A stretch of DNA of 64,000 nt from Butyrivibrio sp. (GCA_022486625.1 JAKVKH010000021.1:1008-65007); one strand, 5' to 3'. Counted from the stretch's first letter, positions 3,541-47,513 are shown. Notes: generated by a model not told the origin, from the sequence alone. Program-made: numbers and translations.

Positions 3541-4365
3541 TCATACAAAAAACTCCGCCTCAGCCCTTCTCTTATAGTTCTGTTCCAGCATTGCCACATG
3601 CGACAGAAACGCGGGGTCTGCAAAATACTTTGCACCTCTGGGACATTTTTTCACGCAGGCCTGGCACTTGATACAGATGCCCCTTACTTCGGCGGGATTC
3701 TCCTCTGAAATTGATCCCATGGGACATACTTTCACACATATGCCGCAGCCATCACACTTTTTCGGATCTGTAAGCGGCTTTGCCTTCAGGAATACAGCCG
3801 GCTGACCGTCTGTTCCAAGCGGCGTGTAATAAGGTGCCGGATATTCTCCTGCTACCTTTACCTGCACAGTTATATTCTCCGGCAGCAGTTTTACCATATC
3901 TGCCGCATGCTTTGCGAACTTTCTGATCCGGTTAATGTCTGCGGATGCAGGTCTTCCTTTTGCAAGCTGATCTGTAAATGCATGCTCTGCAGGAACTGCT
4001 GCCGCCGCAAATGTATGAAAGCCATGCAGTTCGAGTTCATGCTGCAGTTCCTTTAAGCCATTATCATAGCTCCGGTTTCCAAAGGTAACCACCGGTATTG
4101 CTGCCGCTCCGTTACCTTCGATTTTTTCCTGCAGATATGGCAGTATCTTATTGGGTACGCGGCCTGCATACACAGGCATACCTGCAATTACCAGATCCCC
4201 TTTCTGAAATTCCAGCGCCGCCAGACGGTTCCCCGGCAGGGTAATATCCGCCTTTTCGCAGGGCACCTGCAGACACTCTGCCATTTTCTGCCCGATTGCA
4301 GATACGACTTTTTCTGTATTTCCCGTTGCACTGTAATATAAAAGAGTTATCTTCGTTACGTTCAT
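3541..4365 (-). CDS. EFR1-family flavodoxin/ferredoxin fusion
   Basis: Flavodoxin loop YYSATGNT, P-V-Y-A-G-R-V-P, and two CxxCxxCxxxCP motifs; AGGAG SD. Confidence 0.88.
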   Translation of the reverse strand: MNVTKITLLYYSATGNTEKVVSAIGQKMAECLQVPCEKADITLPGNRLAALEFQKGDLVIAGMPVYAGRVPNKILPYLQEKIEGNGAAAIPVVTFGNRSYDNGLKELQHELELHGFHTFAAAAVPAEHAFTDQLAKGRPASADINRIRKFAKHAADMVKLLPENITVQVKVAGEYPAPYYTPLGTDGQPAVFLKAKPLTDPKKCDGCGICVKVCPMGSISEENPAEVRGICIKCQACVKKCPRGAKYFADPAFLSHVAMLEQNYKRRAEAEFFV

Positions 4366-4562: not shown

Positions 4563-4847
4563 ATGGATGGATTTGGGATCAGCAAACAGGATGCAGTAAA
4601 AGAGCTGCGCAGAATGGGTTATTCAGATTGTGAACTTGCAGATGGTGTTGTCTATGTCAGCGGAACTGATAATTACGATGAATTGGCGGTAAAACTCCGC
4701 TCCGTCATGAAAGCAATCGGTTATACCAATGCCTGGGGTATCCGCTCTCCCAGAAAATCATCCTCCTATGGGCAGCCCGCCTTTGCTGCAGAAGAAGATC
4801 CGGACAATGATGAAGACATCACCCTTTTGGAAAATCATCCAGAGTGA
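4563..4847 (+). CDS. Hypothetical protein (94 aa, acidic tail)
   Basis: GGAGGA SD, upstream promoter, protein-like composition. Confidence 0.7.
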   Translation: MDGFGISKQDAVKELRRMGYSDCELADGVVYVSGTDNYDELAVKLRSVMKAIGYTNAWGIRSPRKSSSYGQPAFAAEEDPDNDEDITLLENHPE

Positions 4848-5313
4848 CCGCACTGTCTCTGATGCCTGCTTCTTCCTGCGCATCTCCGAAGAGCCAGCAG
4901 CGGTCAATCTGCATGCATTTTCGTAAGTAAACTGACAGAGCGCCGTTTTCTGCATTTTCCGACAGTACACCGCTGGTTTCTTCTGTCTCTTTGCCCTGCC
5001 ATTCCACGCGCAAAGTCCAGAACCCCTCTTTCATATCTGCCATTTCCGGCTCCGTATCATCACTTCTGTGACATAACGGCACCAGCTTCCGTAACAGCAT
5101 CTGTCCTGCCTCCTGTCCGATTTCCCTGTGAATCCGTTTCCCCGGCTTGAACCTGCCAAAGCCTTCTCCGAAACAGAACGTTTCAAAAGAGATACTGCCT
5201 GCTTCTGTAATTGTCAGCTTCTGCTCCACCTCTTCCTCTTTATCCGGAATTTTCCCTGTTCCAAGCCTGATTGAAGTAAGTTCTGCTTTTTTCGGTTCTG
5301 TCATTTCCATCAT
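4819..5313 (-). CDS. Hypothetical protein
   Basis: ORF track 4819..5325; start moved to the ATG following GAGGA; overlaps the convergent ORF by 29 nt. Confidence 0.65.
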   Translation of the reverse strand: MMEMTEPKKAELTSIRLGTGKIPDKEEEVEQKLTITEAGSISFETFCFGEGFGRFKPGKRIHREIGQEAGQMLLRKLVPLCHRSDDTEPEMADMKEGFWTLRVEWQGKETEETSGVLSENAENGALSVYLRKCMQIDRCWLFGDAQEEAGIRDSAVTLDDFPKG

Positions 5314-5327
5314 TTTCCTCATCAAAA

Positions 5328-8160: not shown

Positions 8161-8233
<73 letters not shown>

Positions 8234-8375: not shown

Positions 8376-9314
8376 TTACTGTTTCATGTGCACATCCAAC
8401 TGCGGGAACGGAATCTCAATATGTGCTTCGTCAAGCGCAATCTTGATCTTCTCGTTCAGTTCCCATTTCGCAGAAAGGAAATGCTCTGCCTTTACCCAGC
8501 ATCTGATACCGAGCGTGATACTGCTGTCTCCCAGATTATCGACAAAAACAACTCTCTCCTGATCGCCCAGCGTCCATTTGCACTCTTCCATTGTCTTCTC
8601 CAGCACTTTTCTTGCCAGCCGGATGTCCGTATCATAACCAACGCCGATTTTGATTTCAACCATACGGGTATCATTTCCCGTCGCATTTGTCAGTGAGGTA
8701 TTGGCAAGGCTTCCGTTGGGAAGGACGATAATCTTGTTGTCCGGTGTAATCAGTCTGGTATTGAAAAGAGAAATTTCTTTTACTGTACCTTCATGTCCCT
8801 TATTGTCTTCAATAATATAATCGCCCAGCCGGAACGGTTTGAGCAGCAGAATCATGATTCCGCCTGCCAGATTGGAAAGACTTCCCTGTACAGCCAGACC
8901 GATTGCCACACCGGCAGAACCGAGAATGGCAACAATGCTGGCAGTGTCCATGCCAAACGCGGCCAGCACGCCGAAAACCAGAATGATTTTCAGTGCGATT
9001 CCGACAAAGGAACACATAAAATGAATGGTGCTTTCATCTACCTTTGTACGCTCCATGGATTTGCGCATGACTTTGGTAATGGTTCTGATCACCTGCAGTG
9101 ATATCAGAATCACAATCACTGCAATCACCACGCGGATTCCCAGCTGCGTTGCCTTATCCGGAAGTTCATTAAAAAACTGTTTGAGCGCTCCCGGATCCAC
9201 ATCCTGTCCTGTCACTTCGGACAGTTTGTCAATTGTTTCCTGCGTTCCCTGCTCCAGCGCACTGCTGCTGATTGTGCTGGCATTTAAAAATGCAGGTATC
9301 ATCATTAATGGCAT
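8376..9314 (-). CDS. mscS: Small-conductance mechanosensitive channel
   Basis: TM helices, GLAVQGSLSNLAGG, KPFRLGDYI, IEIPFPQLDVH. Confidence 0.92.
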   Translation of the reverse strand: MPLMMIPAFLNASTISSSALEQGTQETIDKLSEVTGQDVDPGALKQFFNELPDKATQLGIRVVIAVIVILISLQVIRTITKVMRKSMERTKVDESTIHFMCSFVGIALKIILVFGVLAAFGMDTASIVAILGSAGVAIGLAVQGSLSNLAGGIMILLLKPFRLGDYIIEDNKGHEGTVKEISLFNTRLITPDNKIIVLPNGSLANTSLTNATGNDTRMVEIKIGVGYDTDIRLARKVLEKTMEECKWTLGDQERVVFVDNLGDSSITLGIRCWVKAEHFLSAKWELNEKIKIALDEAHIEIPFPQLDVHMKQ

Positions 9315-11788
9315 TACTGATTCTCCTTACCCTTTTTCTTTGCTGCTGTCTTTTTTGCTGCTGTCTTTTTTGCTGCAGGCTTTTTGACTGCAGTCTTTCT
9401 GGCAGGCTTTTCTTCCGACACAATACTGAAAATCTTCTCTTCTTCGATCTTCACATACTTGTCCTGAATGGCTTTTTCCTGCTCGGCAAGCTCTTCTTCA
9501 TACTTTTTCTTCAGTTCTTCCAGGAGCTTTGCTTCTTCCTGTGCATGCTGATCCAGAAGTGCCTGCCTCCCCGCTTCCTGCTCCTGTTCCATCTTCAGCT
9601 GTGCTTCTTCCCTGATCTTGCGGATCTGCTTCTCCTGCTCTGTATAAGCAGTAAACGAGAATACGCCAAGAGAAAGCGGTGCCATGTGAACGTTGATGGA
9701 ATACTGCCTTCCATCGCATTCTCTGCGTACAGGCTCGATCTCATTACGGTTCACGATACCCTTTCCGCCATAGGACACGTCATCGGTATTGAGTATTTCC
9801 TGATATCGTCCGTCACTTGGAACGCCTACAGTAAACTCACGTTCCACGCCTGCCATGTTCATCACAACGAGCAGTACATCATCATCATTTCTGCCCCTGC
9901 GAAGGAAAGAAAGCATACACAGATCCGCTGCCATGCAGTTGATCCAGTCAAATCCCTCTTCTGAACTGTCATACTCATAAAGGGCCGGATGGTCAAAATA
10001 CATCCGGTTTAAGTCACTCATGAAACGCTCCAGTCTCTGTGCTTTTTCACCTGAAAGAGAATATTTTCCGGGGTAAAACATTTTTTTACCCGGATGTGTC
10101 ATCAGATAAGCCAGGGACATTCTAACGCCGGCTTCCTCCTGCACTTCATCTCCCGGCATCATGGATTTGAGCGCATCATATCCGCCGATATCCTCATGGG
10201 AAAAGGTCAGAATAAATTTCTCCGTGTAACTGTAAATCATACTGAACGTCAGCTCATTATGATGTGCAGAACGGTAGATCGGATCATTCTGAATATAGCC
10301 CAGATAATCATGTGTCCATCCGTTGTTCCACTTATAGTCAAAACCAAGACCGCCGTTTTCCTGTGAATCTGTCAGCTGCGGCCAGCACGCTGTTTCCTTC
10401 GTGATCATGAGAATTCCCGGATCCACTTTGTTCACCATGGATACCAGATGCTTCACAAATTCAACTGCTTCAAGGTTCTCATTTCCGCCGTAGACATTCG
10501 GTGTCCATTCTCCCGGTTTGCGGTCATAATCAAGGTACAGTGCCTTGGAAATATCCGTCAGGCGCAGTCCGTCTGCATGGAAATTCTCAAGCCAGAACAG
10601 TGCACAGCTCAGCAGGTAGTTGGTCACCTGCTTTCTGCCGTAGTCAAAGATCAACCTGTCTGTACCCGGCTGTATGCCTTTTCTGGAATCTGCATATTCA
10701 TACAGGCTCTCTCCATCATAGCAGGCAAGCCCGATTTCCGTCTTCTGGAAAAAAGTGACCGGCAGATCCAGAATGACACGGATCTGTGCCTTATGCATCT
10801 CATTGACAAATGCCATGAAGTCCTGCGGCGTACCATAGCCTGACTTCAGTGCAAAATAGCCTGTCACATCATACTTGTGCTGATCCGTATGCTCCATAAC
10901 CGGAATCAGTTCGATCGCATTATAACCGCAGGACTTCACATGCTGCAGCACATGGATCGCGAGATTTCTGTAATTTGCGTTTTCTCCCGTCTGAATGCAT
11001 TTTTCTGCAAAAGTATCCAGGGTAATCTCGCAGATGGAAAGCGGTGATTCCTGTTTATCATATTTTTTGCGTGCATTCATCCAGCTGTCATCTTCCCAGG
11101 AAATTGTGCCGATCTCACTGACAATAGAAACCGCACCGGTAGAGTCCTTACACCTGAGTGCATACGGATCCGGTCGTTTAAAGCAAAGCCCGCTCTTAAG
11201 TCTGATCTCATACTGATACTCATCCCCGACATTGACTTTCGGAACAAAAATCTCAAATATGCCGGTCGGTTCAAGTCTCCGCATCTGATCAATGCGACCA
11301 TCCCAGTTATTAAAATTCCCGACAACACTGACGCGTGCTGCTTCCGGTGCCCATACGGCAAAATTCACGCCGACAACTCCGTCTCGTTCCATCGGATGCC
11401 CGCCCAGTCTGCTGTCAATATGATAGTGAATGCCGCTGTTAAATTTGATGCAGTCTTCTCTGCCCAGGAGCGGTTCAAACACATACGGATCGTTTTCAGA
11501 AGTCACATTTCCGTCTGCTGTTGTTATTTCATAATGATACTGTGTGCCCTCCCTGATCGGAACCAGTACAGCATAAAATCCGGCATCATCTGCCAGTTCC
11601 ATTTCATACTTTTTACCACTGATTTCGCTGACCACTTCAATTTTTGAAACATTCGGATGAAACGTCTGGATCAGAAACGCATTTCCCACCTTGTGCGCGC
11701 CCAGAATCCGGTGCGGATTGTCTCCGTCTGAATAAATGATTTCCTCAATTTCTGGCCAGTTCATAAGTTTATAGAGTTTACTATTCAC
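9314..11788 (-). CDS. GlgB-like GH13 protein with substituted catalytic residues, C-terminal coiled coil and Lys/Ala-rich tail
   Basis: GlgB N-terminus, CBM48 (GVNFAVWAPEAARVSVVGNFNNWDG), GH13 barrel; regions II/III/IV read RLTD, ITKET, SHEDI. Confidence 0.85.
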   Translation of the reverse strand: MNSKLYKLMNWPEIEEIIYSDGDNPHRILGAHKVGNAFLIQTFHPNVSKIEVVSEISGKKYEMELADDAGFYAVLVPIREGTQYHYEITTADGNVTSENDPYVFEPLLGREDCIKFNSGIHYHIDSRLGGHPMERDGVVGVNFAVWAPEAARVSVVGNFNNWDGRIDQMRRLEPTGIFEIFVPKVNVGDEYQYEIRLKSGLCFKRPDPYALRCKDSTGAVSIVSEIGTISWEDDSWMNARKKYDKQESPLSICEITLDTFAEKCIQTGENANYRNLAIHVLQHVKSCGYNAIELIPVMEHTDQHKYDVTGYFALKSGYGTPQDFMAFVNEMHKAQIRVILDLPVTFFQKTEIGLACYDGESLYEYADSRKGIQPGTDRLIFDYGRKQVTNYLLSCALFWLENFHADGLRLTDISKALYLDYDRKPGEWTPNVYGGNENLEAVEFVKHLVSMVNKVDPGILMITKETACWPQLTDSQENGGLGFDYKWNNGWTHDYLGYIQNDPIYRSAHHNELTFSMIYSYTEKFILTFSHEDIGGYDALKSMMPGDEVQEEAGVRMSLAYLMTHPGKKMFYPGKYSLSGEKAQRLERFMSDLNRMYFDHPALYEYDSSEEGFDWINCMAADLCMLSFLRRGRNDDDVLLVVMNMAGVEREFTVGVPSDGRYQEILNTDDVSYGGKGIVNRNEIEPVRRECDGRQYSINVHMAPLSLGVFSFTAYTEQEKQIRKIREEAQLKMEQEQEAGRQALLDQHAQEEAKLLEELKKKYEEELAEQEKAIQDKYVKIEEEKIFSIVSEEKPARKTAVKKPAAKKTAAKKTAAKKKGKENQ

Positions 11789-11899: not shown

Positions 11900-13150
11900 T
11901 CATATTTTATCATTAATTGCATGAATAAATAACCCACTAAGAAGTTTTGGTTCAAACCAGGTAGATTTCGGCGGCATCAGTCTGCCGGCATCCGCTACGG
12001 CAAACAGTTCATGAATGGATGTCGGGAACATTGCAAATGCAACTCTCATATCTTCATGGCATCTGCGCTCCAGTTCAGAAAGTCCGCGAATTCCACCGAT
12101 AAAGTCAATTCTCTCATCTGTTCTGGGATCGCCGATTCCAAGTACCGGACCAAGAAGTTCATTTTGCAGCACGGAAACGTCAAGTCCGTCCACCGCATCG
12201 TCTTTCCGAATGTCTTCATGTGCTTTCAGAAGATACCAGTGCTCATCCAGATACATGCCAAACATTCCTTTTCCTTCCGGCTTTACCGGGCTGTTCTGCA
12301 TTTTCATCACATCAAATTTTGCAGAAATCTTCTTCATAAATGTTTCTGTATCAAGACCGTTTAAATCTTTCACCACGCGGTTATAGTCCATGATCATCAA
12401 CTGGGAATCCGGAAAAAGGACAGAGAGAAAAAAGTCATATTCCTTCTGCCCGGTCGGATGCATATCCTGCGCTCTTCTGGACAGCCCGACCTTCACTGCG
12501 GAAGCACATCTGTGATGCCCGTCCGCAATATATATTTCCTGCATCCCGGCAAACGCATTCTGTAAAAGACTGATATCTTCCTTATGATTCACGGCCCAGA
12601 TCCGGTTATGTACCTGATCGGATGAAGTAAATTCATAAAGCGTTTTCTGTGTATGACAGATTTTTTCCACACAGGCATCAATTACCCTGTTTTCCCTGTA
12701 ACAGAGGAAAATCGGTCCGGTCTGTGCATTGCATGCATCCACATGACGGATTCTGTCCTGTTCCTTTTCCTGTCTGGTATTCTCATGCTTCCTGATGACG
12801 CCGTTTATATAATCGTCAATTGCAGCACAGCCCACGATTCCCGTCTGTATCCGTCCATCCATGTTCTGTTCATAAATATAATATTCTGCAGTTTCATCCT
12901 GCTCAAAAGTGCCCTCTGCAATCCTGTCCCGGAGCATATCATGTGCTTTCTGATAAACCCGGTCTGCATACATGTCGCAGTCCGGTGCAAACTGTGTCTC
13001 CGGTCTGTCGATTGTCAGAAAGGACATGGGTTCACGCGCCGTTTCCTTTCGTGCCTCTTCTCTGTTATAAACATCATATGGAAGTGCTGCCACGCGGGAT
13101 GCATATGCACCCTGCGGACGGATTGCCTTAAACGGTCTGATCTGTGCCAT
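11900..13150 (-). CDS. DUF1015 family protein (ParB/Srx-like)
   Basis: MAQIRPFKA start after an AGGAG SD; PYDV, HENT, IADGHHR, MPPKSTWFEPK motifs. Confidence 0.88.
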   Translation of the reverse strand: MAQIRPFKAIRPQGAYASRVAALPYDVYNREEARKETAREPMSFLTIDRPETQFAPDCDMYADRVYQKAHDMLRDRIAEGTFEQDETAEYYIYEQNMDGRIQTGIVGCAAIDDYINGVIRKHENTRQEKEQDRIRHVDACNAQTGPIFLCYRENRVIDACVEKICHTQKTLYEFTSSDQVHNRIWAVNHKEDISLLQNAFAGMQEIYIADGHHRCASAVKVGLSRRAQDMHPTGQKEYDFFLSVLFPDSQLMIMDYNRVVKDLNGLDTETFMKKISAKFDVMKMQNSPVKPEGKGMFGMYLDEHWYLLKAHEDIRKDDAVDGLDVSVLQNELLGPVLGIGDPRTDERIDFIGGIRGLSELERRCHEDMRVAFAMFPTSIHELFAVADAGRLMPPKSTWFEPKLLSGLFIHAINDKI

Positions 13151-13195
13151 AACTTTTTCTCCTTTGTGTAAGTAGTGTCCGTATACAGTCGGAAA

Positions 13196-13220
13196 GGGCA
13201 GCCACAAACTGTGACTGCCC
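13196..13220 (-). terminator. Hairpin between serA and DUF1015 (weak terminator or stability element)
   Basis: GGGCAG..CTGCCC stem with only a short T tract. Confidence 0.4.
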
Positions 13221-13252: not shown

Positions 13253-14422
13253 TCAGAATGCCTTTCTGATTACTCTGACGCGGTATACACCGTCGATCTT
13301 TGAAAGCTTCTTTACAAGTTCATCTGTAATGTCCTTTTCGCAGTCGATCATGGTATATGCCACATCTCCTCTGGACTTATTGGTCATATCAGAAATGTTA
13401 TAACCTGCTCCGCCGATTTCGTTGGTGAACTGGCTGATCATGTTGGCAATATTTTTATGGAAAATAGCGATTCTGGGCTTTGTGCAGATTCCCATATCGC
13501 AGTTCGGATAATTCACACTGTTACTAATATTACCATTTTCAAGATAATTCATCATCTCAATAACTGCCTTGACTGCACAGTTATCCTCGGACTCCTCTGT
13601 GGAAGCGCCCAGATGCGGAATTACGATGCAGCCGTCATGACCTGCTATTGTAGCGTTCGGGAAATCCGTTACATACTTGCGAATCTTACCGGAATTGATA
13701 CCGGCCAGAACATCTGCCTCGTTCGCAAGAATATCTCTTGCCAGATTCAGAAGGATGACACCCTTTTTCATCTTTGCAATTGCTTCTGCATTGATCATGC
13801 CCTTTGTGGCATCCATTGCAGGTACATGAATGGTAATGATATCGCACTTGGAATAGATATCATCAACATTGGTGACATGCTTGACATCACTGGAAAGGCT
13901 CCATGCCGCATCTACTGACAGGTAGGGATCATAGCCGTATACATCCATGCCAAGATTCTTGGCTGCGTTGGCAACACGGACACCGATAGCACCAAGGCCG
14001 ATGATTCCGAGCTTTTTACCCATGATTTCAGTTCCTGCGAACTTCTTCTTGGATTTCTCCGTCAGCTTTGCAATATCCGGATCTCCGGCATTTGCCTTTA
14101 CCCATTCCACGCCGCCGATGATGTCACGGGAAGCCAGCAGCATTGCCGCCAGTACCATTTCCTTTACGCCGTTTGCATTTGCTCCCGGTGTATTGAAAAC
14201 CACGATACCTTTTTCCGCGCACTTCTCAAGCGGAATATTGTTGACACCGGCACCGGCACGTGCGATGCACATGAGCTTATCCGAGAACTCCATATCCAGC
14301 ATGTTGGCACTTCTGACCAGAATGCCTTCTGCCTCGTCCACATCATCTACAGCACTGAACTGATCGGAAAAATTATTCAGACCGATCTTTGCGATCGGAT
14401 TTAAGCATTTATACTGATACAT
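13253..14422 (-). CDS. serA: D-3-phosphoglycerate dehydrogenase with C-terminal ACT domain
   Basis: RAGAGVNNIP, LGIIGLGAIG, PHLGASTEESE; downstream of serC. Confidence 0.93.
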   Translation of the reverse strand: MYQYKCLNPIAKIGLNNFSDQFSAVDDVDEAEGILVRSANMLDMEFSDKLMCIARAGAGVNNIPLEKCAEKGIVVFNTPGANANGVKEMVLAAMLLASRDIIGGVEWVKANAGDPDIAKLTEKSKKKFAGTEIMGKKLGIIGLGAIGVRVANAAKNLGMDVYGYDPYLSVDAAWSLSSDVKHVTNVDDIYSKCDIITIHVPAMDATKGMINAEAIAKMKKGVILLNLARDILANEADVLAGINSGKIRKYVTDFPNATIAGHDGCIVIPHLGASTEESEDNCAVKAVIEMMNYLENGNISNSVNYPNCDMGICTKPRIAIFHKNIANMISQFTNEIGGAGYNISDMTNKSRGDVAYTMIDCEKDITDELVKKLSKIDGVYRVRVIRKAF

Positions 14423-14437
14423 ATCTTTATCTCCTCT

Positions 14438-15520
14438 TTACTGGTTGTTTTTCTCAAATTCTTCCATGAATGCAACAAGCTTTGCCACACCTTCCTTCGG
14501 CATTGCATTGTAAATGCTGGCTCTCATACCGCCTACGGTTCTGTGTCCCTTAAGGCTTACAAAACCTGCTTTTGTTGCTTCTGCAATGAACTTTGCATTC
14601 AGTTCGTCACTGTCTGTGACAAACGGTACGTTCATAAGAGAACGGTCTTCCTTGCGGACAGTACCCTTGAACATATTGCTCTGATCAAGGAAATCATAAA
14701 GGATGGCTGCCTTCTCTTCATTTCTCTTCTTCATCTCGGAAAGACCGCCCTGTGCCTTCAGCCATTTAAATACCAGACCGCACATGTAAATACTCCAGCA
14801 GTTCGGTGTGTTATATAAAGATCCGTTGTCCGCCTGTGTCTTGAACTTCAGCATCGTCGGGCAAAACGGCATGACATCATCACGGATCAGATCCTCACGG
14901 ATAATACTGATTACCATACCTGCAGGACCCACATTCTTCTGCACGCCGCCGTAGATGATGCCATATTTGGAAACATCCACAGGCTCGGACAGGAAGCAGG
15001 AGGAAACATCTGCAACAAGATCATGCCCCTTTGTATTCGGGAGTGTATGGAACTTCGTCCCGTAAATCGTATTATTCTCACAGATATAAACATAATCCGC
15101 ATCCGCCGGAATATCCAGATCAGAACAGTCCGGAATATATGAGAAGGTCTTATCGGCACTTGATGCAACTGCAATCGCTTCGCCATACTTCTGTGCTTCC
15201 TGATAAGCTTTCTTTGCCCACTGACCGGTAATCACATACGCAGCCTTCTTATTCTTCATCAGGTTCATCGGAATTGCAGCAAACTGCTGACTCGCACCGC
15301 CCTGAAGGAAAAGCACCTTATAATTGTCCGGAATATTCATCAGATCACGGATATCCTGCTCTGCTGTCTGAATCACACTGTCAAAGGTCTTGGAACGATG
15401 ACTCATCTCATTGATTGACATTCCGCATCCCTGATAATCAAGCATCTCGCTCGCTGCCTGTTTCAAAACCTCTTCCGGTAAAACTGCCGGACCTGCTGAA
15501 AAATTATAAACTCGTGACAT
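14438..15520 (-). CDS. serC: Phosphoserine aminotransferase
   Basis: YNFSAGPAVLP, GGVQKNVGPAG (PLP Lys), GHRTVGGMRASIYNA. Confidence 0.97.
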   Translation of the reverse strand: MSRVYNFSAGPAVLPEEVLKQAASEMLDYQGCGMSINEMSHRSKTFDSVIQTAEQDIRDLMNIPDNYKVLFLQGGASQQFAAIPMNLMKNKKAAYVITGQWAKKAYQEAQKYGEAIAVASSADKTFSYIPDCSDLDIPADADYVYICENNTIYGTKFHTLPNTKGHDLVADVSSCFLSEPVDVSKYGIIYGGVQKNVGPAGMVISIIREDLIRDDVMPFCPTMLKFKTQADNGSLYNTPNCWSIYMCGLVFKWLKAQGGLSEMKKRNEEKAAILYDFLDQSNMFKGTVRKEDRSLMNVPFVTDSDELNAKFIAEATKAGFVSLKGHRTVGGMRASIYNAMPKEGVAKLVAFMEEFEKNNQ

Positions 15521-22458: not shown

Positions 22459-24165
22459 TTATTTTACATATAAAATGAAATCATCATTCTCATAAACCAC
22501 ATGCATGGTTCTGATATAGCTCCAGGGAATGGTCTCAAAGGTCTGGTAATACTTCCACAGATCATCTCCCCGATAATTCTTTCTGGTCATATTTCTGTCC
22601 AGAATCACACAATCCGAATCCTCCACCTGCGTATTATCACATTCAATATTCCATCCGAACTTGAGCAGATATTTCTGATCCACATCACATACGCAGATTC
22701 TGGATCTTTGCAACGGATGTGCCATCAAAAGCGCCAGATAGGCATTATCCTCTCTGGTTCCCAGCTGAGCAAAAAAAGCCGGATTAAGAGTCTGCGAAAT
22801 CAGAAATAAGATACCTAAAAATACCGGAATCATCTGATGAAGATAAGGCCATATGCGAAATTTTATTTCTTCTGTCTGTATTTTTTCCGGCAGATTCTTT
22901 TTCTGTCTGCGTTTTTCAAACAGAAAATGAAGCATAAACATCACATGTCTTATAATGACACTGCAGGAAAGTGCTATTGCTATTCCGTAATAGGAAAAGA
23001 CTCTGTAATATGGAAGTTTACTCTGCAAAATCAGCATCATCGGCATAAACAGAATCGTACAGGCAAAAATCAGTCTGAATGAAGTTCTGCTTTCTTCAAA
23101 ATGAAATACGCAGCCGCTGATCATAATAGTCGTTGCCATTATAATAATCACCAATACTGCAATTCCTGCACCAGGCACAAACTGATCGTCAAAGCTCAGT
23201 ATCCAGTTCCAGAAGCTGCCCCAGAATTCCTTTCTGGGTACGCTCTGAATATACGGCGAAGACAGCATGTAGGAAATGCCCCTTTGGATCACGGTAATCG
23301 GTGCATGAAGAATAATGTGGAAATGCCCCATTCCATACATACTGCTGGTTTTGTCCTTCATGAGCAGATTTGAGCCGATTGCCAGCCATATGACCATATA
23401 CAGCATCATTGTACAGACTGCCGCAATCAAACCCGTCACAATAAGATTTATCAGCTGTTGCCAGTATTTGTTTTCAGAAATCGTTCTGCTGATCTTTCTG
23501 ATCCGTAAACCATTGATTGTCAGAAACAGTGCCGTTGCGAAGCAGATCGGAACAACCCAGTAAATGCTGCTGGGAACCGTATAAAGCCCAAGTACCAAAA
23601 GCATTACCAGATAAATATACCTTGAAATGCCAGTATGGCCGATTCTGCTGAGATCTGTAAGTACCTTGACGGACAGTAAAAAGCACAGTGTGGAAAGTGT
23701 ATACCCTCTTCCCTGTACTGACAGCTGATTGACAAGCTGAAGTCCGCTGTAGATCATTACGGTAAAAAGAGACAGCCAGTTGGTAAAATATAACTTGCAG
23801 ACCCGATACAGAATCACCAGATTGGCCACCGCGCAGAGCCACGATACACCACGAAGTCCGATATAGGGATTACCACAGAGGTCCAGTAATGCAGACAGAA
23901 CAGAATATCCGACATGATTATTGGGAAGTGGCCAGTGAATCGCTGCATATAAAGGACCCCTGCTGATAAAATAATAATAGGTATAAAGTTCATCATACCA
24001 GGGTGTCAGATACAGCATTCTCCAGAGATAATATACCGCCATTGCAATAATGAAAAGCGCTGCTGCCATATTTTCCGGATCCTGAATCAGACGCTCCCAC
24101 GCTTTGAATCTGAACGGTTCCTTTTTATTTTCCGATTCTTTCTGAACCATTTTACCTGTTATCAT
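22459..24165 (-). CDS. Polytopic GT-C-fold membrane glycosyltransferase (PMT-like)
   Basis: WYDE motif after TM1, PNNH loop, about a dozen hydrophobic segments, soluble C-terminus. Confidence 0.65.
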
Positions 24166-29670: not shown

Positions 29671-31390
29671 TTATTCTGCTGTGCAGTCATTTACCCAGGC
29701 GATAAAGTTGTCTGTACTGTTACCTGTGCGCTCTGCTGTGGTATGCGGCTGTCCCCATACAGTTGCAAAGTCTACACTCTTTACCCCATAGTTTTTCAGT
29801 GCCAGCTTCAGATCCTCTTCTGTGCAGAGTGCTGTATCGGACTGATTGATTCCGGTACGAATTCTCCAGTATTTTGCCACATTGGAAGTCTTATAACCAT
29901 CATAATAATCAGACAGGAAATACATCGGATTATACATGTCCGAACGTGTTGTCATTACTGTGCCGATTTCATCCTTTGCGGCCAGGTCCGCTGCAAAATC
30001 AGTCAGACAGGAAGCCTTCCAGTCTGAAAACTTTGCATACTTTGTCTGGTTCTTAATCAGCAGTGCATTTTCAAAAGCATCAAAATGAGCAGCTGTATTT
30101 TCTGCATTTCCAAACAGATTATTCTCACCGCGGCTCTTATCAAGTACATCAAAAGCGCCGACCGGCTTACTCGGATTCTTGCAGTTCTTTACAAAATCAC
30201 CCACATTTGTAATTGTAGCCTTATTTGCCGCTGCATCATAGCTGATCCACTTTCCGTCTTTATTCAGTGAATCAATGTAATCCTGCGGTGTCTGATATAC
30301 AACGCTCTCAGATGAAGATGAGCCGCCTCCCGGCATTCCTGCGCCGCCTGCAGCCATACCATGTCCGTCTCCGTCAGGCTTTGTTCCTGAAGGCATACCC
30401 TGTGCACCTGTCGGTACTCCGGTGCCCTGATCGCCGTTCGCCTGTGCAAAGCCCTGTGCTCCGCCGGAAGTCGGTGTATTACCGACCTGTACCGCAGTCG
30501 CCGTATAGGTATACGGGAAGCTGTTATCGCTCAGAAAATTGTTCAGTGAAGTTTCAATTTCAGTCTTCATATAATCATAATAACTGCCGGCATTGCAGAT
30601 GCCGGTATCTGACTTTGTCAGTGAAAGTGTCGTTCCATCTTCACTCTTAAGTCCCATCTGATTGATATAGTCTGCAAACTCCGCTGCCATATCTGCAGAA
30701 AGCGCTGACGTGAACGTGGAAGAAGCACGTGTGTCTGTATCAAAATACTGTCCCATATTCCACTCATATGCTTCATCTGCAATATCCAGATTGGTAACAG
30801 GGCACCAGCACATGGAACCTGTCACAGCATCATTGACTGCCGTTCCGTTACAATAGGTCATGGCTGCGCCGATACTTTCAAGGTAAGGTGTATACAGAAC
30901 GCTGTTTCCCGTTGCACCTGCCAGTGCACTCTGTGCCCCTCCTCCGCTCATACCGTAAGTGTAGAAATTATCTGTATCTCCCGGAAGTACATTCAGGTTA
31001 TAACGGATATAACGGATGGCTGCCTTCAGATCGGTAATTCCCCAGGGCGCACCGCAACTGTAGGAAAGTGCTGTATCCGACGTTCCGCTCATTCCCTGTC
31101 TTCTGCGCATTCCTGCCAGCACATAGACAAATCCTGCTTTCACATAGTCCGATACAGAGTCATAACTGTATGACGTCGGTGCTGCCTGCGCAGCATAGCC
31201 GGGAGTATCTATCGGCCAGACCACCGGCGCTGTTGATGCCGTATACCCTTTTATCGTCCCGCATGATTTACCGTGCAGGTATAGGTTCCTCTCCCGCCGC
31301 CTTTGCTGACAGCGGTTCCGATACCGCTCTCATTGAAAGCGCTGTTGACGCTACAAGAACACATGATAGTAACTTCTTTCCAAATCTCAT
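29671..31390 (-). pseudogene. Disrupted subtype A tannase-like esterase
   Basis: Signal-peptide ORF 31268..31390, a GTYTCTVN fragment in a second frame, and the catalytic body (TAPVVWPIDTPGY, GMSGGGAQS, WCPVT, WGQPHTTAER) in a third frame. Confidence 0.72.
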
Positions 31391-44165: not shown

Positions 44166-45791
44166 TCACATCAGATGAAGTTTTCTGGCAAATCTGACCA
44201 GTAATGTACCACCGGGGATTTCATAGCATTCATACTCATTAATTCCCTTAAGTACTGTCAGCAGCACCAGATAAATCGGGGTTCCGATGACAATACATGT
44301 AACAATGGACAGGATCTCGCCAATTACTCCAACCAGCAGTCTGCTTAAAAAATACACGACAAGTGCAGCAACACCGGCACTGATCAGAGGAATGGCAAAG
44401 CTTCTGAGCCATTCCTGATGATAATGAATCATTCTGGATATCTCCATCAGTGTAACTGCATCATATACTGCCAGCATCAACATCATTGCCAGAATATCCG
44501 CATGAAGTCCCATTCCGCCTGCAATTGTCATAATCAGTACCATGACTACATGCACTGCAAATGCCAGAACAGAATTTACAATCAGTATTTCTACCCTGTG
44601 AAGCCGCAACATGATGCAGGATGCAATCAGTGCAAATGACGCAAGCAGCACGGTAATACTGCCAAAAGAAGTCATTGCTACAGCACTGTCATTGGGTATG
44701 CCAAAGAAAGCGGTCTGAATCGGTTCCGCCAGAATCGCCACAAATGCAGTAACCGGAATCAGCAAAATCGCCTGCGCATGAATCATCATCGACAGTTTTT
44801 CTCCTGCCTGTACCAGATCTGCATGTGAAATTCGTGCACAGAACTGATAACATCCCCTGATAAACGGAACTGCACAGATCAATGCGATCAGATAAATGAC
44901 AGACATGAAACTGCCATAATAAATTCCCCAGTTGCCGATCATGGCATCCCGGTCTCCTCTAAGCGCAGCAAAAATAAAATAAATCTTTTCATCTGCAATT
45001 GTCAGAAGTGCAAATCCTGTCGTAATTGCGATCATTGATTTCAGATTTTTACCAATTCCGATATGCGCATCAAGATATCTCGGTGCTCCATGATCAATTT
45101 TTTCCCGAATCTGACCTCTGCGAATTCTATATACAATCGTGATATGAATCAGCGAAAACAGCAGTGACAACGCAATTCCGGTCATTGCGCCAAGTGCTCC
45201 ATAAGCCGGAGCACAGTCCTCCACACGCAGAAGTGCGTTCATCCGGAGACCATACCGATAAAAAATCTGTGCCAGAATCCAGGACAGTACAAATGATAAC
45301 ACCGCTTGAACTATCATCGAATAAAGAACAGGAACTGCTGCTCCAAAGCCATGCAGATATCCCCTCATTGTTCCCTGCATTCCCATCAGAATCAGACAGA
45401 CTCCGGCTGCTGCGAATGCCATAAAGGCTTTTTGCATTCCCAAAACAGTTCCCGCAAGTACCTCTGAAAGCAAAATTATCATCACTCCGATGATCAACGC
45501 TGAAAGGCCCGCCATGCGAAGCGCAATCTTCATTCCATAATCTGCATTCTGATACTGCTCTCTTCGTGAACGAAGTCTGATCATGCTATCCACCGCACGC
45601 TCATATGAATACAGAAAAACCGCACATCCCAGTACATATATTTCCAGCGGAGCACTCAGCATTCCAATACCTTCTTCTCCGATGACATATACCATACTGA
45701 TTCTGATCATCATAAAGACTGCAAGGGAAAGGATGACCGCTCTGGAGAGCATATCCGGCCTTACTTTATGTAAATCAGCCCGTAGCTTCAT
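44166..45791 (-). CDS. MOP-superfamily flippase (SpoVB/MurJ-like)
   Basis: About 14 TM segments, RGYLHG, AYGALGA motif. Confidence 0.7.
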   Translation of the reverse strand: MKLRADLHKVRPDMLSRAVILSLAVFMMIRISMVYVIGEEGIGMLSAPLEIYVLGCAVFLYSYERAVDSMIRLRSRREQYQNADYGMKIALRMAGLSALIIGVMIILLSEVLAGTVLGMQKAFMAFAAAGVCLILMGMQGTMRGYLHGFGAAVPVLYSMIVQAVLSFVLSWILAQIFYRYGLRMNALLRVEDCAPAYGALGAMTGIALSLLFSLIHITIVYRIRRGQIREKIDHGAPRYLDAHIGIGKNLKSMIAITTGFALLTIADEKIYFIFAALRGDRDAMIGNWGIYYGSFMSVIYLIALICAVPFIRGCYQFCARISHADLVQAGEKLSMMIHAQAILLIPVTAFVAILAEPIQTAFFGIPNDSAVAMTSFGSITVLLASFALIASCIMLRLHRVEILIVNSVLAFAVHVVMVLIMTIAGGMGLHADILAMMLMLAVYDAVTLMEISRMIHYHQEWLRSFAIPLISAGVAALVVYFLSRLLVGVIGEILSIVTCIVIGTPIYLVLLTVLKGINEYECYEIPGGTLLVRFARKLHLM

Positions 45792-45814: not shown

Positions 45815-46324
45815 TTAATCCTGATCCCTTGTAATTCCAAGGCTGTCAAGGATCAGCGTCTGCTTATCTTCCATTACCTTTGCTTCATCCGGTTCCATAT
45901 GATCATAGCCACACAGATGCAACATGCTATGCGCTGTCAGAAATGCAAATTCTCTCTTCTGACTATGTCCATAACTCAGCGCCTGCTCCCGCACACGTTT
46001 TTCATTAATGACAATGTCTCCCAACATGATTTTCCCGGTATCAGGATCAAGACAGTCATTCTTCTGTACTCCATCCAGTGCGGAGAAATCTGCCGGTTCC
46101 GGATACTCTACATTTGGAAATGACAATACATCTGTCGGCCGATCAATCTCTCTGAACTGCCGGTTCATTTCCTGAATTCCGTTATCATCGGTAATAATCA
46201 TATTCACTTCTACATCCCACGGACAGGACTCTTCCTGCAAAACTGCCTCACAGACTGATCTGGCAATTTCTTCCGGGTCAAAATCAAATTCTGCATCTAC
46301 TTCATTCTCAATGAAGAAAATCAT
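45815..46324 (-). CDS. ybeY: rRNA maturation endoribonuclease YbeY
   Basis: TDVLSFP, HSMLHLCGYDH. Confidence 0.95.
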   Translation of the reverse strand: MIFFIENEVDAEFDFDPEEIARSVCEAVLQEESCPWDVEVNMIITDDNGIQEMNRQFREIDRPTDVLSFPNVEYPEPADFSALDGVQKNDCLDPDTGKIMLGDIVINEKRVREQALSYGHSQKREFAFLTAHSMLHLCGYDHMEPDEAKVMEDKQTLILDSLGITRDQD

Positions 46325-47513
46325 AATAAAGTTTCTCCTTCTTCAACAGTGCTCTGATCTGGTTCAACTGCGCAATAGTCATTGAACTGTCCCTAAATTC
46401 ACCTGCATCTGTTTTTCTCTGAAAAATCTTGTCTATCAGTTCATCGTAGTTCAGCTTTGTCCCGGGTTCTTTCTGATAAATATACATAATTGAAGCCACA
46501 ATAGTTTCGCAGATCATGACAATTGCCGTCTGAACAGATACCTCGCCGCTTTTATGGTTAAAATATTCTCTCAGAAGCTCCTGCGCATCATCCGGAAAAT
46601 GATATTCCCTGCAATATTTCTCCACCATATTCCAGGAATGATCTCCTGTAATATGCCCGATCCGATGATAATAAGCGCAGGTCTTCACTGCACGATGATC
46701 CACTCCCAGCGCCATGGCAATCCGCTCCGCCAGATATGCGGTATGAATTGCCCGATAATACTCTTCCTTATCTTTCTCTTTCAGCTGAACCAGCAGTACA
46801 AATTCCGGATCATTAACTTCCATATACATATCCGTACCGTGCCGGATCACACTTCTGCTGAATACATTAATCAGAATCAGAAGCAGAATCATGCTGATCA
46901 GCATATTCAGTGCCGGTACTGCAAACATTGCCACAGAGAATGTAACATTTTCAAACAGAACATAGTATGCCATCAGGAGCACGCCCTGCATCAGCAGTGA
47001 AATCAGAAGCGGAAGCCCCACTTTCATATCTTCGTCCAGATTTCGGAACAGAATCAGTGCAATGGAACCTGCCATAAAATACATGAAAAACTCACCATAT
47101 TCTCCGTTTTTTTCCAACATGACTGAAATCATCAGCAGCACCGTACCGGTAAAAAAACCAATCTGAAGATTCGAAAAAAGTCCCAGAATAACAAATATAA
47201 CCAGGTAAGGCCATGCTGCATAACTAATCAGTGGCAACACTGATGCAACCACTAGACAGACAATACAAATAAAAACAAATCTTGGTATGTGTTTTCCGTT
47301 ATCATACGAAAACGTCTGATTCCGGCTGCCATCCTGAATCATATAAATCAGGATTCCGGCACCCATCAGCGCTACAATCGTATTACGCTGTATTTCTTCA
47401 ATGCTCTTTTCATAAAGCAGTGAAAAGCCAAACACAACTGCTCCTGTTACTGCAAACAGAAGAATCATCAGCAGTCTGCTTTTTTCGCTTTGCTTATTTA
47501 TATCAGTTGCCAT
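46308..47513 (-). CDS. 7TM-HD (PgpH-like) membrane protein with a degenerate HD motif
   Basis: Multi-TM N-terminus; LAERIAMALG...YYHRIG; lies between phoH and ybeY. Confidence 0.75.
   Translation of the reverse strand: MATDINKQSEKSRLLMILLFAVTGAVVFGFSLLYEKSIEEIQRNTIVALMGAGILIYMIQDGSRNQTFSYDNGKHIPRFVFICIVCLVVASVLPLISYAAWPYLVIFVILGLFSNLQIGFFTGTVLLMISVMLEKNGEYGEFFMYFMAGSIALILFRNLDEDMKVGLPLLISLLMQGVLLMAYYVLFENVTFSVAMFAVPALNMLISMILLLILINVFSRSVIRHGTDMYMEVNDPEFVLLVQLKEKDKEEYYRAIHTAYLAERIAMALGVDHRAVKTCAYYHRIGHITGDHSWNMVEKYCREYHFPDDAQELLREYFNHKSGEVSVQTAIVMICETIVASIMYIYQKEPGTKLNYDELIDKIFQRKTDAGEFRDSSMTIAQLNQIRALLKKEKLYYDFLH

Follow-up and report, generated by a model that had tools for sequence, protein, structure and literature searches.

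In a 64,000-nucleotide (nt) stretch of Butyrivibrio sp. DNA (GCA_022486625.1 JAKVKH010000021.1:1008-65007; the whole stretch analyzed, hereafter the window), the gene at 9314-11788 encodes an 824-amino acid (aa) member of the GlgB branching enzyme family, here called GlgB2. The best-supported reading of its sequence is that of a pseudoenzyme, non-catalytic and maintained under strong selection. Its domain composition suggests that this dead GlgB probably organizes glycogen rather than making it. An initial annotation of the window had described a dead GlgB with intact N-terminal domains, a coiled coil and a histone-like tail, and had proposed it as a candidate tether between glycogen granules and the nucleoid.

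The open reading frame (ORF) begins with a GTG codon 7 nt downstream of a Shine-Dalgarno sequence (GGAGA), and its 824 codons run without a frameshift, in agreement with the initial annotation. The product passes two NCBIfam GlgB models (NF008967, 629.8 bits against a cut-off of 577; TIGR01515, 588.4 against 464) and falls below the cut-off of another (NF003811, 636.5 against 741). Its best PDB match is the M. tuberculosis GlgB 3k1d (E = 3e-145), and every public record of the protein that we encountered labels it GlgB. By Pfam, the GlgB_N domain is present in 54/54 family members and the CBM48 match is full length (model positions 2-83 of 83); the Alpha-amylase match is restricted to residues 280-342, a part of the barrel. 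An AlphaFold2 model built with an alignment of 54 family members has an ordinary GlgB body, with a mean predicted local distance difference test (pLDDT) score of 82 and values mostly above 85 in the barrel. When this model was submitted to Foldseek, the top 44 matches were all bacterial GlgBs (3k1d, template modeling [TM] scores 0.77/0.88).

Within this well-preserved fold, the catalytic site is altered. We read the motifs from residue-by-residue HMMER alignments to the GlgBs of M. tuberculosis (3k1d) and Cyanothece (BE1, 5gqz), and these bore out all five changes that the initial annotation had listed, comprising the four catalytic regions (Table 1) and the replacement of WGY by HKY at residues 304-306. 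The catalytic acids are replaced by T411, K464 and E532. Among the seven residues of the GH13 signature, D341, R409 and H531 are kept and F346, T411, K464 and E532 are replacements; other canonical substrate-site positions, W376 and the Trp-Gly of WGY (304-305), are also gone. We considered a one-residue register shift that would restore acids at the +1 positions (D412, E465 and D533) and rejected it, as neither PDB alignment has a gap within regions II-IV. E465 and D533 are residues already present in the canonical AEES and HDE motifs, and D412, the sole new acid, aligns with the small Ala that follows the canonical nucleophile position; on these alignments we treat the three residues as not restoring catalysis. 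By the established mechanism, a retaining GH13 transglycosylase without nucleophile and acid/base is inactive. Because such an enzyme needs both residues and both are replaced here, we infer that the protein lacks branching (EC 2.4.1.18) activity.

The remodeling extends beyond the catalytic residues. We compared 63 dead-clade members with 51 GlgBs carrying an intact triad, scoring positions at least 90% conserved in the intact set. The dead clade retains 87 of 125 such positions and differs at 38. The barrel accounts for 35 of the differences, and only 3 precede residue 236, where the N domain and CBM48 are located. The changed positions cluster at 299-317, 337-350, W376, 411-416, 463-467, 530-537 and 568-574. 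This concentration in the barrel indicates that the active-site pocket was rebuilt while the N-terminal domain and CBM48 were left almost untouched, in line with the intact N-terminal domains initially described. With both Pfam models matched at full length and nearly all conserved positions retained, GlgB_N and CBM48 together form a candidate granule-binding module.

Conservation of the altered site is extensive. At least 120 homologs (the 120 best database matches) share 54-99% identity with GlgB2 at lengths of 797-894 aa, and the named ones belong to Butyrivibrio spp. The sequence xTKET is present in all 121 sequences (query and homologs), and the homologs likewise share R-x-[S/T/A]-D-[I/V], while all but a few have [S/T]HE[D/E/N]. 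In a 54-sequence alignment, D412, T463, K464, E465, T466, H531 and E532 are invariant. A genome scan using one genome per species returned 331 relatives, of which we analyzed the best 80 loci (L001-L080); the altered motifs recur in 66 of these, and the ORF is full length in nearly all, the two shorter ones stopping at a contig edge. For the 40 closest pairs (89-98% identical), we estimated the ratio of nonsynonymous to synonymous substitution rates (dN/dS) by the Nei-Gojobori method. Whole-gene values are 0.03-0.08 (0.07 for the query against L001), with 0.01-0.08 for the dead barrel, 0.00-0.08 for the helix and 0.05-0.45 for the tail. Three pairs of catalytically canonical orthologs gave similar barrel values (0.01-0.04). 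Thus, the loss of catalytic residues is coupled with purifying selection on the fold, as in pseudoenzymes of the ISA2 type. The altered site and the basic tail, whose maintenance the initial annotation had left as a point to be checked, are, like the helix, kept under strong purifying selection, the tail by composition.

Beyond the C-terminal beta domain lies a 109-aa extension (residues 716-824; nt 9643-9317), which consists of a charged helix and a basic tail. The helix ends in a conserved IFSIVSEE motif, and about 44% of its residues in the query are E, K or R; family-wide, charged residues account for about 54% of the extension preceding the tail, and conserved hydrophobic positions in the helix are sparse. 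The Fourier power of the family hydrophobicity profile is 6.7 at a period of 3.67 residues and 1.05 at 3.5, and the extension of the canonical orthologs described below behaves similarly (4.74 at 3.67 versus 1.69 at 3.5). Because the periodicity peaks at 3.67 residues and a heptad (3.5) periodicity is absent, the term coiled coil is unestablished: the approximately 70-residue E/K/Q coiled coil first annotated here stands as a long charged helix of 75 residues, not as a heptad coiled coil. This element could be a coiled coil built on hendecads, an amphipathic helix used for docking, or a single helix of the ER/K type; if fully extended, its 75 residues would span about 11 nm.

The tail (KKPAAKKTAAKKTAAKKK) contains 12 K and 1 R in 33 residues, for a net charge of +9.8 and an isoelectric point (pI) of 10.5. 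It is attached to an otherwise acidic protein, with a core pI of 5.0 and a net charge of -34. Residues 793-818 resemble the histone H1-like HC2 family in Pfam weakly (E = 0.0024, 18.5 bits against a cut-off of 40). Across the family, the composition of the tail is conserved and its sequence is not: the last 35 residues average 32% K, 15% A, 14% T and 12% S, with a median of 12 K+R versus 2 D+E. In a metagenomic homolog with 99% identity (P0001, 819 aa), the tail is shorter by exactly one TAAKK unit. Since a 15-nt tandem repeat encodes the tail and this homolog is one unit shorter, tail length differs between close strains through repeat slippage.

The 80 loci fall into three groups that bear on the origin of GlgB2. 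Group a, in which the dead site is of the TKET type, comprises Butyrivibrio and closely related Lachnospiraceae. Group b consists of five metagenome-assembled genomes (MAGs) in which the site has diverged further (GFRLPDI, I[VAT]RE[TS], LG.D.L), with retention of D412 and of a basic residue at 464 (R464 with PDI). Group c includes fourteen Lachnospiraceae/Clostridia MAGs (L064, L066, L069-L080) at 45-48% identity whose motifs are fully canonical (DWVPAH, GIRIDAV [GIRMDAV in three], [IV]AEES, FSHDEV, KWNMG[FW]) and whose long GlgBs are presumably active. These canonical proteins bear a charged extension of 74-168 aa, usually Lys-rich at its end; it is rich in Ala, Glu and Lys, nearly devoid of hydrophobic positions, and lacks IFSIVSEE. 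The dead protein and the canonical long GlgBs have in common an N-terminal MNWPEIE motif and the N-domain architecture, and the gene order serC-serA-DUF1015-glgB is shared by all three groups. By these sequence and synteny criteria, the dead protein is a positional ortholog of an apparently active, tail-bearing long GlgB (serC-serA-DUF1015-glgB-mscS). As the canonical syntenic orthologs already carry the helix-plus-tail module, the module is older than the loss of catalysis, and the notion that helix and tail are an adaptation of the dead protein is not borne out.

Uncultured gut Lachnospiraceae contain canonical long forms (785-899 aa) in abundance (proteins P0367-P0486). A neighbor-joining tree, whose deep branches among long-branch degenerate sequences are unreliable, joins groups a and b to group c as sisters, and several further degenerate sequences fall between them. 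The AlphaFold2 model of one canonical tail-bearing ortholog (A2) contains a long C-terminal helix (735-832); its quality is low (mean pLDDT 48), owing to a shallow underlying alignment.

GlgB2 is part of a wider radiation of degenerate GlgB-like proteins. We searched 1.84 billion cluster representatives (50% identity) exhaustively with HMMER and took the 150 best matches (P0121-P0270), of which 125 are of at most 1000 aa. A complete Asp/Glu/Asp triad is missing from 88 of these 125 closest representatives, and almost any residue may occupy the triad positions. C-terminal extensions of at least 50 aa occur in 44 of the 88 degenerate proteins versus 6 of the 37 canonical ones (Fisher p = 5.6e-4), in a sample that is biased by its ranking according to similarity to a dead, tailed query. 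Many degenerate proteins bear charged C-terminal extensions of 50-250 aa; the four representatives that we looked up are all annotated by Pfam with ordinary GlgB domains, and one cluster bears the name Lachnospira sp. In several of the degenerate proteins, two of the three catalytic acids are still present, a pattern suggestive of loss in steps or on repeated occasions. Basic ends are also found on catalytically canonical GlgBs outside the lineage: P0207 has AAKK repeats followed by KRRGRPPKKK, with an AT-hook-like RGRP, and P0221, from Oscillospiraceae, has an Arg/Lys-rich 26-aa end with 13 Arg/Lys. Judging from these sequences, basic tails may be a recurrent feature of branching enzymes, and their presence on intact orthologs and on P0207 suggests a localization module attached to GlgB.

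Butyrivibrio species are known to make glycogen and to encode branching enzymes. Cytoplasmic glycogen inclusions have been observed in B. proteoclasticus by electron microscopy (PMC2914790), and a review lists BfGBE of B. fibrisolvens among the characterized GH13 branching enzymes, citing Rumbak et al. 1991 (PMC13515694). In B. hungatei MB2003, both a glgB1 (663 aa) and a glgB2 (824 aa) are annotated, each marked as having a homolog in the type strain JK615 (PMC5716241); the glgB2 ortholog of the type-strain assembly DSM 14810 is among our matches (P0102). The only inactive branching domain mentioned in a 2024 review of prokaryotic alpha-glucan enzymes is that of a chlamydial GlgA-GlgB fusion. 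Our literature search turned up no account of a catalytically dead GlgB paralog in bacteria, of lysine-rich, coiled-coil or histone-like features in a GlgB, or of tethering between glycogen and the nucleoid, in keeping with the initial statement that no described system of this kind was known. A 2025 review of bacterial organelle positioning covers polyhydroxybutyrate (PHB), polyphosphate, carboxysomes and magnetosomes and never mentions glycogen (PMC13052382); on this basis, a glycogen tether would be new.

We favor, tentatively and with doubts that slightly outweigh our confidence, a reading in which GlgB2 is a non-catalytic descendant of the Lachnospiraceae long-form GlgB, a predicted glucan-binding scaffold whose tail would engage a polyanion, plausibly the nucleoid. 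According to this model, the whole GlgB fold is kept while changes to the triad, the region-I His and about 35 other barrel positions would preclude glucan-chain transfer. The retained N domain, CBM48 and GlgB surface would hold the protein on glycogen, and the 75-residue charged helix would project from the C domain as a spacer and/or oligomerization element. The disordered Lys/Ala/Thr tail (+10) would stick non-specifically to a polyanion, most plausibly nucleoid DNA, although RNA, polyphosphate or membrane are also possible partners. The protein would in this way anchor or space glycogen particles, as PhaF and PhaM do for polyhydroxyalkanoate (PHA)/PHB granules and AlgP for polyphosphate granules, with branching left to a short canonical GlgB1. 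By analogy, a protein that is otherwise acidic and joins a head predicted to bind glucan to a long, stiff, charged helix and a disordered basic tail has a tether-like design. Tails of the PhaF/PhaM/AlgP type bind DNA non-specifically and space or partition storage granules (PMC13052382; PMC9239181), and histone-like tails anchor granules of both PHB and polyphosphate to the nucleoid (PMC13052382); it is this precedent, together with the tether-like design, that leads us to retain nucleoid tethering as the leading mechanism.

The components of this model differ in strength. Glucan binding is likely, given the retained domains. Whether the tail binds DNA or another polyanion is finely balanced, and a role in granule positioning or partitioning, argued by analogy, is on the unlikely side. 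We also entertain, as a rather doubtful extension, the idea that Lachnospiraceae position their glycogen via GlgB: the ancestral long GlgB would anchor nascent particles to the nucleoid by way of its stiff charged helix and a tail that binds polyanions, and the copy in Butyrivibrio and several other lineages would have abandoned catalysis to become a dedicated tether and spacer.

Several observations weigh against a nucleoid tether. HC2 is matched in only 5 of the 54 family members (best E = 6.8e-6), with the query below the cut-off, and many family tails are Ser/Thr-rich rather than AKKA-like. The tail first annotated as histone-like is therefore confirmed as basic and disordered, but its likeness to histone-like tails appears from these sequences to be compositional only. 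As the tail predates the loss of catalysis, it alone gives no reason for the dead copy to have been retained. The dead barrel is as constrained as that of active enzymes, beyond what a passive scaffold would need. Among the 44 extensions of the degenerate radiation, the last 35 residues are clearly basic in only 17; a charged extension is therefore a broader trait than a basic tail, and polyanion binding cannot be a universal function of degenerate GlgB-like proteins. Lastly, the initial annotation had looked to a second, intact glgB elsewhere in the genome. A short glgB1 is indeed annotated alongside glgB2 in B. hungatei, but no second glgB lies within the 64-kb window.

The constraint on the barrel and the fixation of D412, K464 and E532 leave real room for a regulatory subunit or a new ligand pocket. 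In the former case, GlgB2 would form complexes via its helix or barrel with GlgB1, GlgA, GlgP or GlgX and modulate activity, substrate delivery or chain-length specificity, the tail being an inherited accessory. Barrel dN/dS values as low as those of active orthologs (0.01-0.08) and the three invariant residues would fit an interaction surface with exacting demands. B. hungatei also has a canonical glgB1, and no feature is shared more widely across the degenerate radiation than the charged helix; non-catalytic isoamylase roles in plants are documented (PMC12510319). However, the gene never adjoins other glg genes in the 80 loci and the helix lacks heptad periodicity, and we consider this explanation unlikely, though a serious competitor. 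The same constraint could instead reflect a sensor or neo-enzyme rather than a passive scaffold, in which D341, R409, D412, K464, E465, H531 and E532 make up a different catalytic center or a ligand site, with a sugar phosphate, nucleotide sugar or maltodextrin as a candidate signal. The substitutions are fixed (TKET in 121/121 sequences), and D412 and a basic residue at 464 recur in the sister clade b. Nevertheless, the retaining GH13 mechanism is impossible without nucleophile and acid/base, the loss of W376 and of the Trp-Gly at 304-305 suggests a lost -1 subsite rather than a retuned one, and the near-arbitrary triad residues of the wider radiation fit relaxed chemistry. We regard a remodeled pocket as improbable.

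Gene order raises another explanation, that the basic tail binds anionic phospholipids or a co-translated MscS channel and so holds glycogen or the protein at the membrane. Adjacency of mscS to the long glgB is ancient: an MscS gene follows every group c long GlgB whose downstream flank is covered and lies directly downstream in 4/4 very divergent degenerate relatives that we looked up, one of which (P0131) continues with argH and asd, as in the window, while another (P0134) also has DUF1015 upstream. In the window, the glgB2 stop codon overlaps the mscS ATG (TAATG, 9312-9316), with the mscS Shine-Dalgarno sequence inside the last glgB2 codons. Against this, core Butyrivibrio species keep the tail yet have apt and relA/spoT in place of mscS at this site, so the link between channel and tail is not obligatory; moreover, the C-terminal end has no evident amphipathic helix for membrane targeting, and adjacency by itself is weak evidence. 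We give membrane or channel anchoring little credence. The remaining explanation, a decaying, functionless copy kept by chance, has the loss of catalytic residues as the sole point in its favor. Full-length ORFs and conserved synteny speak against it, and the low dN/dS (0.03-0.08) together with the invariant replacement residues rule out neutral decay; that such a copy should persist in this form is exceedingly improbable.

Table 1. Positions of GlgB2, its domains and motifs, and neighboring genes in the window
Feature	Positions (nt)	Strand	Basis
glgB2-type gene, 824-aa GlgB-family pseudoenzyme (predicted)	9314-11788	-	Stop codon 9314-9316
GlgB N-terminal domain (GlgB_N), residues 11-102	11483-11758	-	Pfam PF22019, E 2.9e-25
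CBM48 glucan-binding module, residues 128-210	11159-11407	-	Pfam PF02922, E 3e-24
Remodeled (beta/alpha)8 barrel, predicted catalytically dead, residues about 236-610	9959-11083	-	Alignment to solved GlgBs
Region I DLPVTF (canonical DWVPAH), residues 341-346, His to F346	10751-10768	-	Alignment
Region II GLRLTDI (canonical GLRVDAV), nucleophile Asp to T411	10550-10570	-	Alignment; RLTDI = 409-413
Region III ITKET (canonical IAEES), acid/base Glu to K464, invariant	10391-10405	-	Alignment; TKET = 463-466
Region IV FSHEDI (canonical FSHDEV), transition-state Asp to E532, invariant	10187-10204	-	Alignment; SHEDI = 530-534
C-terminal all-beta domain (Alpha-amylase_C), residues 615-711	9656-9946	-	Pfam PF02806, E 5.4e-17
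75-residue highly charged alpha-helix, residues 717-791	9416-9640	-	AlphaFold2, single uninterrupted helix
Lys/Ala/Thr-rich disordered tail, residues 792-824 (33 residues)	9317-9415	-	AlphaFold2 pLDDT <50
15-nt tandem repeat x4, encoding (T/P)AAKK tail units	9339-9398		Tandem Repeats Finder: period 15, 4.0 copies, 88% matches
MscS-family channel gene	8376-9314	-	Pfam MS_channel_2nd, MS_channel_3rd
DUF1015 gene, immediately upstream of glgB2	11900-13207	-	Pfam PF06245, E 8e-114
serA-like gene	13253-14422	-	Pfam 2-Hacid_dh
serC-like gene, start of conserved gene string	14438-15520	-	Pfam Aminotran_5
tRNA gene, between mscS and argH	8161-8233	-	Rfam, 72 bits

The genes surrounding glgB2 are not those of a glycogen operon: no other glg gene is present in the window or in the 80 genome loci, where the neighbors of the GlgB-like gene are serC, serA, DUF1015, mscS, apt and relA. 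In 62 of 80 loci DUF1015 is the upstream neighbor, at a median distance of 34 bp (111 bp in the window), synteny with serA and serC is found in 56-58 of 80, and an MscS gene is directly downstream in 30 of the 73 loci with enough flank. A scan for promoters and terminators, whose counts were at chance level overall, gave a promoter-like site at 15598-15571 (11/12 matches) and no terminator-like site in the DUF1015/glgB2 or glgB2/mscS junctions. The tRNA gene, the only feature detected by an Rfam scan of the window, probably marks the end of the transcription unit. The remainder of the window carries housekeeping genes. Four further ORFs, all on the minus strand, have no Pfam match at E <= 1e-6: 22459-24165 (568 aa), 29671-31224 (517 aa), 44166-45791 (541 aa) and 46308-47513 (401 aa); relatives of the 568-aa ORF occur at the matching upstream position in 11 of 80 loci. 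Downstream of asd, also on the minus strand, are a 168-aa ORF without a Pfam match (4819-5325) and a gene for a 274-aa protein with 4Fe-4S ferredoxin domains (3541-4365) that has no relative in related loci.

To our knowledge, nothing is known about how bacteria position or partition glycogen, a widespread carbon store, and a conserved GlgB with a tether-like design provides a concrete, testable candidate for such control. Glycogen in E. coli undergoes phase separation at the old pole, with asymmetric division as a consequence (PMC11042326). If the proposed function is true, it would constitute the first described system for glycogen positioning or partitioning and would counteract polar phase separation of this type. 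Independent of function, the branching capacity of gut and rumen Firmicutes may be over-counted in metagenomic surveys of carbohydrate-active enzymes (CAZymes), because so many of the closest GlgB-like representatives (88/125) lack a complete triad. The occurrence of active and dead orthologs at one locus also offers a natural comparison for the transition from enzyme to structural protein.

GlgB2 can be placed alongside several known systems. Its likeness to solved GlgBs (M. tuberculosis 3k1d, Cyanothece BE1 5gqu, E. coli 1m7x) is one of homology (E = 1e-119 to 3e-145) and extends over the four-domain fold; it differs from them by the four lost catalytic or signature residues, by changes at 38 of 125 near-invariant positions and by the 109-aa helix-plus-tail extension. 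With the canonical long GlgB of gut Lachnospiraceae it shares the locus, the MNWPEIE motif, the N domain and a charged extension, the difference being that the motifs of the latter are intact. PhaF of P. putida, PhaM of C. necator and AlgP of P. aeruginosa share with it a logic, in which a granule-binding head is joined to a Lys/Ala-rich low-complexity tail. The title of a 1990 algP paper, cited in PMC13052382, refers to repeat-number variation within algP, and the GlgB2 tail likewise varies in repeat number, with one unit fewer in P0001. However, these proteins have no homology to GlgB2, whose head is an apparently dead enzyme and predicted binder of glycogen rather than of PHA or polyphosphate; Pfam matched no phasin or AlgP N-terminal family in GlgB2, which contains only GlgB domains and the weak HC2 similarity.

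Inactive relatives of alpha-glucan enzymes provide a second set of comparisons. The non-catalytic starch proteins of plants include PTST1/2/3, which combine a coiled coil with CBM48, the inactive isoamylase ISA2, and the inactive BAM4 and BAM9. Like GlgB2, they are non-catalytic alpha-glucan binders that use CBM48 and/or a dead glycoside-hydrolase fold along with helical regions, but they are eukaryotic, plastidial and of independent origin, and the PTST proteins have no GH13 barrel. We know of no histone-like basic tail on any of them. Inactive ISA2 pairs with ISA1 in plants, and GlgD pairs with GlgC in Firmicutes. GlgD, an inactive paralog of the ADP-glucose pyrophosphorylase GlgC kept as a subunit, belongs to the same pathway and phylum as GlgB2; in contrast, it is of another enzyme family, resides inside the glg operon beside its partner and has no tail. 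We regard GlgB2 as a GH13 pseudoenzyme that possibly works like the known histone-tail granule tethers.

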